64,000 nt of DNA, from contig OZ223496.1 in NCBI GenBank assembly GCA_965140785.1, forward strand, positions 64,001 to 128,000, written 5' to 3'. The stretch comes from an uncultured Ruficoccus sp. (GTDB lineage Bacteria > Verrucomicrobiota > Verrucomicrobiia > Opitutales > Cerasicoccaceae). Positions 8,274 through 11,423 of the stretch are shown one piece after another (positions within the stretch are counted from its first letter, which is position 1; the number at the start of each line of letters is the position of its first letter). Both the position numbers and the translations under genes were made by a program. Under the pieces are notes generated by a model that made no database searches, was not told the DNA's origin, and saw nothing but the letters and a program-made list of their open reading frames with translations.

Positions 8274-9077
8274 ATGAAAAGCAAAAATCTCGTCTCACGT
8301 GCAGTAACCCTGGGAGCCTTCAGCATCGCCACGCTCTGCGCCACCTCTCTCTCGGCAGCAACCTTCAGCGATGACTTCAACCGGACCGATACCGCATGGA
8401 CCCAAGACGGTTCGATTATCGGAACCGACTGGGTGATCGGTAACGGAACCAATTGGAGAATCGTTAACAACGAGCTCGAATCCGAACCTTACACAGCGGG
8501 CAAACAGGTCATCTGGAATACAGCCGTTTCCTTCGCCCCCGGCGACACCACGCTGAACTTCTCCGGAACTCTCACCTCACATAATGGCGGTTGGAACGGA
8601 ATTGTGTTTAATCTCCAGGACGACGGAAACTATTACACAGTCCGGCTGAATGGCGGTGGCAACAGCAACGACTTCCAATTTCTCGTCTTTGGAGACGGCG
8701 GTCTCAAAACACAAATCGATCCGGAAAGCGGCAGTAAAACAGCAAGCGCCTACTTTAACCAAAGCGTTCCCTACACGGTCACAGTCACCCTCGTTTCCCA
8801 AAACCTTTACGGCGTTTCGATCAGCGGCAGCAATATTGACGACATCTATCGTGAATACGACGTCAGCTCTTACGCCTCGTACCTGTACTCCTCCGGCTAT
8901 ACGGGCTTCTACTCCAGCTCGGTTGGTACCCTCTACGACGATTACTCCATGACCACCAACGCCCCGGAGTCTTCCACCACCGCATTACTGATGGGGCTAC
9001 TGGTTCTTTCCAGCATTCTGGGCACCCGCCCGCCTGAAACAGCGCGGCTAAATGGCCAAGCATGCGAAATACGCTGA
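8274..9077 (+). CDS. PEP-CTERM-type exported surface protein (beta-sandwich-like); true stop probably 9051
   Basis: Signal peptide; C-terminal APESSTTALLMGLLVLSSILG. Removing one C at 9025-9031 gives the canonical basic tail TRRLKQRG followed by TAA at 9049-9051. Confidence 0.75.
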   Translation: MKSKNLVSRAVTLGAFSIATLCATSLSAATFSDDFNRTDTAWTQDGSIIGTDWVIGNGTNWRIVNNELESEPYTAGKQVIWNTAVSFAPGDTTLNFSGTLTSHNGGWNGIVFNLQDDGNYYTVRLNGGGNSNDFQFLVFGDGGLKTQIDPESGSKTASAYFNQSVPYTVTVTLVSQNLYGVSISGSNIDDIYREYDVSSYASYLYSSGYTGFYSSSVGTLYDDYSMTTNAPESSTTALLMGLLVLSSILGTRPPETARLNGQACEIR

Positions 9078-9275
9078 TGGCTAAAGCCGTTAAGGCTCGC
9101 CCGGGTTATTGTTTGAGCTTGAGAAAGCGGACGTGCCAGAATTTTCCGTCCTGCGTCGGATAGACGATCAGAAACAACGGACGCGGGTTGCGGTACGCCA
9201 GGCGTGTGTCTGAGCCTCCCGAAATTGGTCCATTGCTGATGAGATGATTTTCTGTCAAATGACAGATAATCGAGT

Positions 9276-9566
9276 ATGAAACGAGGAAGACGAAGCACCG
9301 AAGAGATCATCCGCATCCTTCGCTCGCGCGAAGGTCTAAACGTCGAGGATGCCTGCCGCGAGCACGGTATCAGCCCGGCGACGTACCATCGCTACAAGCG
9401 CCAGTATGGGGGGGTTGGATGTGAAGGAGGCACAGCGGCTACGGGACTTGGAGAAGGAGTTCACGAGCGTAGCGAGAAGGCCTGACACTCCGAGCTAAAG
9501 AAGCTGCTTGCCGACCATTTGCTCAAGACCAAAGCCCTTGAGATTGCGTTGGAAAAAAACGCCTGA
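9276..9566 (+). pseudogene. IS3 transposase OrfA, disrupted
   Basis: MKRGRRSTEEIIRIL...ACREHGISPATYHRYKRQYGG; G7 run at 9408-9414 and a 26-bp insertion at 9460-9485; reading resumes SELKKLLADHLLKTKALEIALEKNA. Confidence 0.85.
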
Positions 9567-10546
9567 GCCCGGATCACCAGCGCGGGGCGGCCGCCAAGGT
9601 CGTCGCCGCGCTTCGGTGCTCCGGGAGACAAGTGTGCCGGTGGCTGGGCATTCATCGCTCAACCTATCGTTACCAACCCAAGCCGCTACCCGAGAAGAAG
9701 CGGCTGCTGGAAGCCGAGATCGTGAAGATGAGCCAGCGTCATCCGACCTTGGGCTATCGCAAGATCACGCGCAAGCTTCGCGAGGCCGGTTGGAATGTGG
9801 GCAAGAAACTGGTGCAACGCGTACGTCGGCAGGAGGGCCTGCAAGTGCCTGCTCCTAAACCACGCACACGTCGTCAGGGCTTGTCGACAGGATTGCCGCA
9901 GCAGGCCACGCCCCGTAACCACGTCTGGGCCTGGGACTTGTTTTCTTGTGATCATGTCGCGCTTCGCGCTCGGTAGTCTCCGACCATACTCAGCGTGGCG
10001 GCGCCCTGCGCTGTTTTAACCTCATTGATGAGTTTACGCGTGAGTGTCATTGCATCCATGCGGATCGCTCCATCAAGGCCGATGATGTGCTCGCCGTGCT
10101 CAAGCAGGCGATCACCACCCACGGAGTTCCCGCGTATATCCGCTCCGATAACGGGCCCGAGTTTATCGCCAGACCGATCAAGCGCTGGCTGGCCGACAAT
10201 CAGATCAAGACCCTCTACATTGATCCGGGTTGCCCCTGGCACAATGGCGGACGGTGCGACCAGCCCGCCCGGCTACGTCGAGTCCTTCAACAGCCGCTTC
10301 AGGCAGGAGTGCCTGGATCGTGAACTGCTCTACACCCTCAGCGAATCACGCGTCGTCTTTAATGATTGGCGCAGCTACTACAACAACGAACGCCCTCATC
10401 GCTCTCTGGGCTTGCTCACACCGACCCAGTTTGCCAAACAACTAAACTCAGGTTCCGGCTCCGTTCGGCCTACGGCCTCTCTACGCCAGAACCTCCAAAA
10501 ACAAACAAACCAACAACACAACCACCAGACCGGAAATCTCTCATAA
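9560..10546 (+). pseudogene. IS3 transposase OrfB (DDE), disrupted by two insertions
   Basis: Pieces HPTLGYRKIT, NHVWAWD, NLIDEFTREC, IRSDNGPEF, PWHNG / YVESFNSRFRQECL and YNNERPHRSLG lie in different frames. Confidence 0.9.
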
Positions 10547-10644
10547 CATCCGGACCAAAACGTGGGACTCAGACATGGTGGGCAAAAGCCAAGCGCAGAC
10601 GGTAGGCCGACCAGGCAAGCTTCACTTGCCCTTCCCGGCTTCGC

Positions 10645-11423
10645 TCACAGCTCTGATTTTTTGGGTGCGCCGGGGGTAGCGTCCAGAGTGATCCCATTGG
10701 AATGGCAGAAGACGCGTAGAGTTTTGGCAGTGGGCATGGCATTCGCCCCTACCTCTGTCTCAAAATAGCGGATGAACTCGCGCATACGGTATTTGTCCTT
10801 GGGGTGCTCCAAGACGTAGAGCAAAAGGTGAAACTGCCACCACTGGCCCGGATCGTGATCCCATTGGCCGTCGGTTTGGAATTCCTCCCCTTCTAGGAAT
10901 TCCAAGGTGGCGGCAATCTGCCGGAAAAAGTCCGTCCGGTTCTGCGTGATAGCCTGGCTTACGCAATCGAGGGTCAATCGCTTTAGAACAGGATCTGAGG
11001 ATTGGGCAGTACCGGCGGCATGTTGCTTCCACTCCCGGACAAAAAGGTAGGCCCCGGTGTCTCGGTTACCCGCCTTGTATTTTTCTAGGAGAACCAGCAA
11101 TTCCCGGCGGCTTAGTCCACCGTAAGACTGGCTCAGGCGTTTCTCTACATCGGTGACCGGGAGCGGTCCGGTGTTGGGCGGTCCGTCCTGACTCGAACTG
11201 CCAAAGGAGGCAGTTTTCTCGTTAACAGATTCCGGTTTTTGTCGGTCGTCGGCATCCTTGGGGCATATTCGACAAATTGGCGAATACGCAGCCGCAAGCT
11301 GTCGGAAAACTGCCACAGACTCAGAAAGTCCGCGAACCCCGCATCGGCCTCGCTCCCCATCGACTTCTTTAAAAAGTCCTCAAAAGAAAGTACCGGGTCC
11401 TTTGTATGCTCTTTCATGGTCAT
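10645..11423 (-). CDS. Hypothetical cargo protein of the integrative element (~259 aa), split by a probable frameshift near G4 11260-11263
   Basis: Overlapping ORFs 11145-11423 and 10645-11316 join as FVEYAP-KDADDRQ if one base is added to the run. Confidence 0.55.

Follow-up and report, generated by a model that had tools for sequence, protein, structure and literature searches.

Probable REP-like mini-elements within an IS3 transposase and other insertion sequences of Opitutales

The interrupted IS3 element

The window analyzed here, a 64,000-nucleotide (nt) stretch of the genome of an uncultured Ruficoccus sp. (contig OZ223496.1 of assembly GCA_965140785.1, positions 64,001 to 128,000), contains an insertion sequence (IS) whose transposase genes, orfA and orfB, are broken by three short inserts (ins1, ins2, and ins3) and by a one-nucleotide slip in a run of G (G7). 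Its OrfA carries a helix-turn-helix (HTH) domain and its OrfB a DDE catalytic domain (rve), and the element is a member of the IS3 family; the four segments between the lesions match HTH_Tnp_1 (36.7 bits), HTH_21 (51.0), rve (61.7), and rve_3 (61.4). The ends of the IS were fixed by alignment of three copies with unrelated flanks, and the loose ends of contigs (9206/9207 and 10572/10575) agree. These three near-identical copies are the window copy itself (C25:73200), C25:51330-52699 (100% identical), and C49:929-2304 (99%); more diverged relatives are found in the same genome at C10:628114 (87%), C48:54672 (85%), and C26:99526 (72%). No target-site duplication, of which 3-5 bp would be expected of an IS3 element, flanks any of the three window-IS copies. 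The features of the element are listed below; X3 is an independent DNA sequencing run from an unrelated metagenome.

9207-10575, plus strand: IS3-family insertion sequence, 1369 bp, with TG...CA terminal inverted repeats (copy alignment, contig loose ends, domains)
9276-9566, plus strand: orfA (HTH and leucine zipper), native stop TGA at 9564-9566, disrupted by G7 and ins1
9408-9414, plus strand: G7 run, a +1 frameshift relative to the G6 of X3 and of the C10 copy (copy alignment, X3 contig)
9460-9485, plus strand: ins1, net insert of 26 nt; its site, G^AA, lies centrally in a native GGAG-AA-CTCC palindrome (alignment, X3)
9553-9559, plus strand: A7 slippery run followed by the orfA stop, which we take, from what is established for the IS3 family, to be the programmed -1 frameshift site from orfA to orfB
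9632-9940, 9976-10248, 10274-10546, plus strand: orfB (HTH_21 and rve catalytic core), in segments in three frames (open reading frames, domain matches)
9940-9975, minus strand: ins2, 36 nt in place of one C (net +35), just past the W-x-W-D motif (alignment, X3)
10246-10270, plus strand: ins3, a 25-nt insert of type C (defined below), between N-G and Y-V-E, with flanking GGC direct repeats (alignment, X3)
10467-10477, plus strand: GGCC-TAC-GGCC hairpin in the IS tail, present in diverged copies too, and as GGGC-TAC-GCCC in other IS3 lineages

A sequence-only reading of this locus had proposed three frame-breaking inserts in an IS3 transposase, a proposal that the copy alignment and the contigs of run X3 bear out; alignment to other copies, which that reading had suggested, sets the boundaries given above. 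The position of ins3 is equivalent to 10249-10273, owing to the GGC repeat. The G6 to G7 slip had been overlooked in that reading and brings the number of lesions to four. Compared with the C10, C48, and C26 relatives, the inserts amount to an extra 26, 35 (net), and 25 nt, each absent in at least one relative, and all four lesions are common to the C25:51330-52699 and C49:929-2304 copies. With standard decoding, orfA terminates within ins1 and orfB at a TAG at the end of ins2; we infer that the three inserts and the G7 slip together destroy both reading frames under such decoding.

The most informative allele comes from run X3, in which a 4029-nt contig spans 9207-9939 and 9976-10474 with 28 differing letters in 1232 (97.7% identity) and lacks all four lesions, having one G fewer at 9408-9414 and none of ins1, ins2, or ins3. 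Relative to the window, this contig is missing 3 nt at 9460 plus 23 nt at 9464 (ins1), and at ins2 it joins 9939 to 9976 with a single C between, as does a C10-type contig of run X1. An uninterrupted version of the window IS therefore exists, and the lesions are young. Further empty sites occur in an rve (IS481-like) transposase family of the same genome, where they are clean, at three sites of an IS3 in a related genome, and in diverged copies that are without one or more of the inserts. The sequence-only reading had left it to sequencing runs to confirm the inserts, and contigs of runs X1 and X2 span G7, ins1, ins2, and ins3 without a gap; these two runs may share their organism or sample with the assembly, so that they exclude an assembler artifact and are not independent biology. 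The only RNA run with part of the stretch, X9, yielded contigs of an insert-free relative that is about 90% alike, and is uninformative on splicing of the window IS.

Two single-letter differences were also seen within orfA. At position 9327, all covering contigs of X1, X2, X3, and X9 differ from the window, and at 9324 they likewise do, except for part of the X2 depth; the contigs read G (9324) and A (9327) where the window has T and C, and the other two genomic copies agree with the contigs. These differences are either a private variant of the window copy or two assembly errors.

A family of TACCGA elements

A 41-nt insert in the C48 copy and a 48-nt insert in the C26 copy recur at about ten and about six more places, respectively, and led to a family of elements, 26-52 nt long, with a common layout: a 5' TACCGA tag, a variable mini-hairpin that often has a GNA triloop, GACA, a second mini-hairpin of the GCGNAGC type, and a 3' end in ...CA. 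When the elements are aligned, the GTACC(G)A start is invariant and is followed by the variable hairpin, then GACA, an AGCG-N-AGCG block, and the ...CA end; the ends are conserved and the hairpins exchangeable. Subtypes differ in this hairpin, which comprises 8 bp with a GNA loop in subtype A, GCCTGC-GAA-GCGGC in A2, 7 bp plus a bulge with free loops of 3-4 nt in B, and minimal centers in D. The central hairpin folds with z < -1 relative to shuffled sequences in 22 of 36 unique elements (mean z -1.83).

Two of the three window inserts fit this layout. Read on the minus strand, ins2 is a TACCGA element, with the TACCGA tag, a GCGC-GAA-GCGC hairpin, GACA, and an A-rich tail. By comparison, ins1 is a degenerate member that starts with TTCAC-GAG, contains the GCGTAGC motif, and ends in ...GACA; an element of the ins1 type lies at the identical orfA site (E-K-E^N, the caret marking the insertion point) of another IS3 in genomes G161 and G162. 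Both ins1 and ins2 score below the threshold of the two search models that we used, R1 and R2. The third insert, ins3, represents a second type (C), of which a 24-25-nt relative is found at the same N-G^Y-x-E motif of the rve family; in both the IS3 and rve families, type C has a CGGC/GGC direct repeat of 3-4 nt on both flanks. Copies of one TACCGA family are the best explanation for ins1, ins2, and most of the similar transposase inserts of this genome. The inserts had at first been thought unrelated to one another, which is not so for ins1 and ins2, one family with ins2 antisense. Among the origins offered for them, tiny non-autonomous palindromic elements accord with what we found, namely empty-site alleles and repeat families with conserved ends and a variable hairpin.

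Hairpin formation needs a more qualified statement. For the single inserts, the label "hairpin-bearing" holds weakly (DNA fold z of +0.4, -1.4, and -0.6 to -0.9 against shuffles for ins1, ins2, and ins3, the last with an imperfect GGCGG..CCGCC stem), and it holds well at the level of the family; the nearest-neighbor DNA folding parameters include no bonus for GNA mini-hairpins, so the fold scores neither prove nor disprove hairpins. The GCGNAGC/GCGNNAGC motif is described as an extraordinarily stable mini-hairpin DNA (PMC13037366), and the same motif occurs in the 3' half of the elements and often also in their center. The subject of that work is the physical chemistry of a DNA motif rather than a genetic element (PMC13037366). 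The earlier remark on the stability of GNA triloops thus fits the elements, in which GCGNAGC motifs are recurrent. The inverted repeats noted around the inserts are present as well, but they are largely native palindromes (GGAG-AA-CTCC and GAC-TTC-GTC) with the inserts in their centers. When nine element loci and window positions 9000-10800 were scanned against Rfam by E-value, only chance-level matches to snoRNAs and lncRNAs came back (E of at least 3.6).

Target sites

Comparison of filled and empty alleles reveals a simple rule: GAG or GAA in the empty allele becomes G-TACCGA...CA in the filled one (in one case, CAA becomes C-...-AA), so that a triplet is replaced, not duplicated. The empty alleles behind this rule are those of two rve-family sites, three sites of the IS3 in G160 (a related Opitutales metagenome-assembled genome, or MAG), ins1 and ins2 against X3 and C10, and one contig of genome G006. 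On that contig (G006:C56, locus L061), the same IS3 stretch is present twice, on either side of a scaffold gap; one copy encodes G-P-E up to the gap, and the other has an element replacing that GAG. The pair may be a filled/empty polymorphism collapsed by the assembler.

Several targets are loops of small native palindromes, such as GGAG-AA-CTCC (ins1) and GAC-GAA-GTC (ins2), and in other genomes elements have also gone into the T-loop (TTC-GAR-T) of tRNA 3' ends that are duplicated and into the loops of terminator-like hairpins. Type B precedes E-C-L-N in no fewer than three IS lineages; type A occurs both at T-R-E^C-L and at Y-L-V-E^E-N; and N-G^Y-x-E is the site of type C in IS3 as well as rve families. 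The recurrence of the same subtypes at the same protein motifs of unrelated IS families indicates that the choice of target is site-selective and does not reflect descent. One subtype lies at a GAA that straddles two codons, which argues that the target is chosen at the nucleic-acid level and not by reading frame.

At seven Opitutales loci (L115, L137, L146, L091, L144, L125, and L165), one or two modules were observed downstream of tRNA-Gln and tRNA-Ser genes. Each module combines three parts: a conserved A(C/T)GAGAACC..GGTTC piece, a TACCGA element sitting in place of the T-loop GAR, and a copy of the last ~17 bases of the tRNA. To judge from this arrangement, the modules look like the product of repeated T-loop integration that preserves the tRNA.

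Distribution of the elements

The Ruficoccus genome (G000) contains about 25 elements, inside transposase genes or relics of at least three IS lineages and at recurrent sites. A regular expression matched 21 places, 20 of them in transposase genes and in sense orientation; the 21st, in an unrelated open reading frame (ORF), is likely a chance match. Model R1 gave 21 matches, and the broader R2 gave 23 at E<1e-3 and 26 at E<=1. All matches that were read in context fall within IS3 or rve transposase genes or their relics, and among these matches none lies in a host gene or beside a tRNA gene.

Elements were found in 4 of 16 genomes of the bacterial family and in 4 of 151 genomes of an even sample of the order, all four within that one family. 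A pattern scan of one genome per species (185,579 species) gave 117 loci. Many of these are chance matches in unrelated phyla, and we kept only those with a complete tail and an Opitutales title; the loci with a complete tail carry Opitutales, Opitutaceae, Puniceicoccaceae, or Pelagicoccus titles and include one isolate genome. No description of such elements was found in the literature searched, whose coverage omits most subscription journals.

Inserts and IS decay

Within the Ruficoccus genome, inserts accompany decaying IS copies, and intact copies are without frame-breaking inserts. Another IS3 is present in ten full-length copies (98.3-100% identity) plus one copy cut by a contig end, none of which has an insert, and the one copy that was translated is intact; its relics, at 88-90% identity, carry inserts. 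Similarly, the rve family has two intact, insert-free copies (C26:80651 and C4:131355), and its insert-bearing copies also have a catalytic E to G change, a lost start codon, or one-nucleotide indels. In the 72% relative of the window IS, at C26:99526-100844 (minus strand), both orfA and orfB are fully open, and a type B element of 48 nt is read in frame, adding 16 residues immediately ahead of the E-C-L-N motif. Judged by its sequence, this IS is a candidate for an active element that tolerates its insert at the protein level.

At four loci (C26:99296, C26:178766, C10:469904, and C39:139355), an internally deleted IS has its two halves joined across an element. These deletions are best explained by recombination between two elements within one IS. 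As for the window IS, on this evidence it is a disabled derivative whose three copies arose either by trans-mobilization or from a master copy outside the assembly.

Resemblance to known mini-elements

The known elements that come closest are the repetitive extragenic palindromes (REPs), which, according to PMC3733652, are 20-40 bp long with a GTAG or CGTC tag and are reported in the Planctomycetes-Verrucomicrobia-Chlamydiae (PVC) superphylum (GTAG). With REPs and REPINs (PMC3733652), the elements share a short end tag outside the stem, a variable stem-loop, a short conserved tail, a lineage-specific copy number, and the location of some copies within genes. They differ from REPs in their tag, (G)TACCGA, in the second motif of the GCGNAGC type, in the fixed ...CA end, and in the replacement of a target triplet; in addition, their own-genome copies, about 25 in number, are all inside transposase genes and not between genes. 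Inverted doublets, a trait of REPINs, were not noticed, although no systematic search was made. Membership in the REP family as defined by its association with RAYT (REP-associated tyrosine transposase) genes was rejected, as no Y1 or RAYT gene is flanked by elements (0/13 loci). Two Y1_Tnp (RAYT-like) genes of this genome, at C10:480168-480497 and C43:224747-225076, are 309-codon open frames with no TACCGA element nearby. A classification as MITEs (miniature inverted-repeat transposable elements) was likewise discarded: the TACCGA... and ...CA ends are not inverted repeats, the GAR triplet is replaced and not duplicated, and a direct repeat (3-4 nt) exists only at type C.

Rickettsia palindromic elements (RPEs) are about 100-150 bp long and as a rule lie in frame in many housekeeping genes. 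Their insertion into protein-coding genes is noted in PMC3733652. The resemblance lies in shared palindromic mini-elements within ORFs that sometimes encode an in-frame peptide, as here in types A2 and B and in a P-W-Q insert. The elements described here differ, being 26-52 nt long, mostly frame-breaking or stop-bearing, and located in IS genes. In cyanobacteria, Elhai and co-workers reportedly described in 2008 SDRs, mobile-looking repeats that are only some 20 nt or slightly more in length, can form hairpins, and are inserted in other repeats and in genes; we know of no reported preference of SDRs for transposase motifs or of triplet replacement by them, and they have another sequence and belong to another phylum. 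The bypass inserts of T4 gene 60 and the mitochondrial "byps" are 27-55 nt long, hairpin-bearing, and apparently mobile, and their host genes are functional, with matched codons at the insert edges and a stop after the take-off codon. The byps of Magnusiomyces mitochondria are presented as translational bypass elements (bioRxiv 10.1101/2022.08.31.505936). Some of our elements show such features (type C, the rve-family type A, and an insert at L-I-D^E described below), although chance matches of codons are likely; unlike bypass elements, however, matched codons are not general among them, their orientation and codon register vary, and there are extragenic copies too.

Origin of the inserts

The best-supported conclusion is that the TACCGA elements form a new, REP-like family of mini-elements restricted to the Opitutales, which in the Ruficoccus genome both mark dead IS copies and contribute to their making. 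With moderate confidence, we interpret them as tiny mobile elements of a lineage-restricted family that ride in ISs and that, in the window, have disabled one, with ins3 as a second small type. As the filled and empty alleles show, TACCGA elements take the place of a GAR triplet, one that often lies in a native palindrome's loop. In the mechanism we envisage, an element inside an IS would be copied and spread along as a passenger, and two elements within one IS could recombine to leave an internally deleted IS. On this view, the window IS, derived from an intact element that persists elsewhere at 97.7% identity, would itself be non-autonomous or dead. The mobilizing enzyme might be a single-strand, hairpin-recognizing nuclease of the HUH/Y1 kind, for which an association with RAYT genes was expected, tested, and not found.

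Several observations weigh against this interpretation. Y1_Tnp genes have no element at E < 0.5 within 1.5 kb at any of the 13 loci in G000 and G160-G162 (0/13), and the TACCGA type showed no target duplication, an unusual trait in a transposon. The lesions in the window can be paired by length: in orfA +1 and +26, in orfB +35 and +25 (sum 60). The assembly, 90.85% complete, yielded no intact copy of the window IS, and the presence of the four lesions in three copies with unrelated flanks implies that the IS multiplied after it had been broken. The same is seen in G160 and in a further related MAG, G161. In G160, an IS3 has about 44 copies, and in all 30 that were analyzed a 34-nt element (net +31) stands where S-D-N-G-S-E-F has its E. 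Another element, 45 nt long and with a TGA in frame, lies at L-I-D^E^Y-T-R in 28 of these 30 copies, and some copies have two more. Nevertheless, orfB (280 codons) is stop-free in 29 of 30 copies when the insert columns are excluded, a count in which the method masks one-nucleotide indels, and among eight representatives the pairwise ratio of nonsynonymous to synonymous divergence (dN/dS) is 0.08-0.35, with synonymous divergence (dS) of up to 0.62. Two groups of copies, nine at 99.5-100% and 14 at 98.3-100% identity, form two bursts, each with the TGA-bearing and net +31 inserts, and perfect 4-bp duplications flank 6 of 29 copies. No intact, insert-free copy was seen among 35 of the ~44 copies examined; the five without the +31 insert, together with two diverged ones that could be delimited, are truncated, degenerate, or broken by another element. 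In G161, there are about 45 copies of an IS3 (45 DNGSEF motifs and ~46 matches to the L-I-D^E element). From 23 loci examined, 19 copies were delimited, and 18 of these (1318-1345 bp) are interrupted twice, in orfA by an element of the ins1 type and in orfB by the L-I-D^E element; the inserts are in frame (+27 and +42), each with an in-frame TGA, and the ORFs are otherwise intact. Seventeen of these 18 two-insert copies are 99.85-100% identical, perfect 4-bp duplications flank 5 of the 19, and the 19th copy is without those two inserts yet broken by others. A diverged IS with an insert at the same site (L186) was set aside, being one lone relic joined to a different repeat.

The G160 and G161 IS families therefore multiplied while interrupted. 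Three accounts of their spread remain: a helper copy outside the MAGs; highly efficient, site-specific homing of elements into copies that had already diverged; and inserts that do not block expression. By-eye alignment suggests that two inserts (79 nt in total) are identical between two G160 lineages whose dS there is 0.36, an observation that homing into diverged copies would explain.

The third account leads to the strongest alternative, possible although doubtful in our judgment, in which the inserts are tolerated as recoding or intron-like sequences, passed by a ribosomal hop or readthrough or excised from the mRNA, and serve to throttle the expression of transposase, not to kill it. A narrower form, which we put forward only tentatively and regard as rather unlikely, holds that the elements are bacterial counterparts of the mitochondrial byps, colonizing transposase genes without silencing them through bypass, readthrough, or RNA cut-and-rejoin. 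The bursts in G160 and G161, the open frames, the low dN/dS and the lack of a visible intact supplier in G160, and the identical-looking inserts of its lineages all favor tolerance, and so does the anatomy of particular inserts. Type C has GGC at both edges, its hairpin beginning at the first; the rve-family type A has AAC-TGA at the foot of its 8-bp hairpin, and Asn is the first codon downstream; in the L-I-D^E element, AGC-TGA is followed 21 nt later by an AGC in frame; and GTC...GTC surrounds the ins2 hairpin. Moreover, ins1 is 1 nt shorter than its +27 version, and G7, 50 nt upstream and the sole one-nucleotide indel, restores the downstream frame.

Nevertheless, by rough estimate the pairing of lesion lengths would occur by chance about once in nine, and matched codon pairs are likely chance (~0.5 per insert) unless their positions are fixed beforehand. 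There is no matching landing codon for type A at the IS3 site or for the B-type tails; one subtype is out of codon register and ins2 is antisense, neither of which suits a design at the level of translation; and the 16 codons between G7 and ins1 are out of frame, with a TGA in that frame. The elements occur outside genes too. Insert-bearing copies in the Ruficoccus genome carry further lesions, as described above, while intact copies lack frame-breaking inserts. The elements match no Rfam family and show no ribozyme-like core; a self-splicing intron or small ribozyme was rejected for want of an Rfam catalytic core and for a length (26-52 nt) too short for group I or II introns. Finally, site-specific homing, or trans-mobilization by a copy absent from the MAGs, would also account for the dN/dS values and the bursts.

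That the host itself writes short hairpin cassettes into transposase genes to inactivate ISs, as the sequence-only reading had contemplated, is improbable. Every element detected in this genome does lie in a transposase gene or relic, and insertions recur at conserved motifs of the catalytic domain in three IS lineages. Elsewhere in the Opitutales, however, elements lie in terminator-like hairpin loops and in duplicated tRNA 3' ends beside tRNA genes, the most active ISs of G160 and G161 are carriers that multiplied with their inserts, and no associated gene was found in a search confined to Y1_Tnp. Passenger amplification combined with a short target motif is a simpler account of the enrichment.

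Unrelated products of decay (template switching, slippage, or repair filler) or assembly artifacts are very improbable and largely refuted: the rve-family type C does contain a copy of its own downstream flank, and ins1 and ins2 are degenerate and under both model thresholds, but the same sequences recur at many loci and across many genomes, including an isolate, which also speaks against the earlier suggestion of template switching, the ins1 type recurs at one site in G161 and G162, and run contigs reproduce the inserts.

Other features

The GGCC-TAC-GGCC hairpin in the IS tail had originally been pointed out alongside the inserts; it is not an insert of the window copy, and diverged copies have it. 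In diverged IS3 lineages (L200-L229), the hairpin encodes ...R-(P/A)-T-(A/P)-S-L-R..., and one G160 copy (L200) is missing a 22-nt block that contains it. The hairpin may be old and prone to indels, and not an ancestral part of the gene. Directly upstream of the IS, the ORF at 8274-9077 ends in a C-terminal hydrophobic stretch followed by basic residues, which presumably resembles a PEP-CTERM sorting signal.

Implications

If the elements are only selfish, they are among the smallest mobile-looking DNAs, replacing a triplet at the same protein-motif sites of unrelated transposase families, and the internal deletions that they mediate would constitute a concrete route to IS decay and to MITE-like derivatives. 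If bypass or excision were true, they would be the first large natural set of such mini-inserts in bacterial chromosomal genes, a phenomenon new for bacteria, and the natural variants (in or out of frame, with or without stops, and in both orientations) would make the mechanism testable. Under the byp-like reading, ISs would carry built-in, mobile throttles on their expression and yet keep transposing. In either case there is a consequence for annotation: the "pseudogene" labels given to transposases in these genomes may be systematically wrong, or systematically right.

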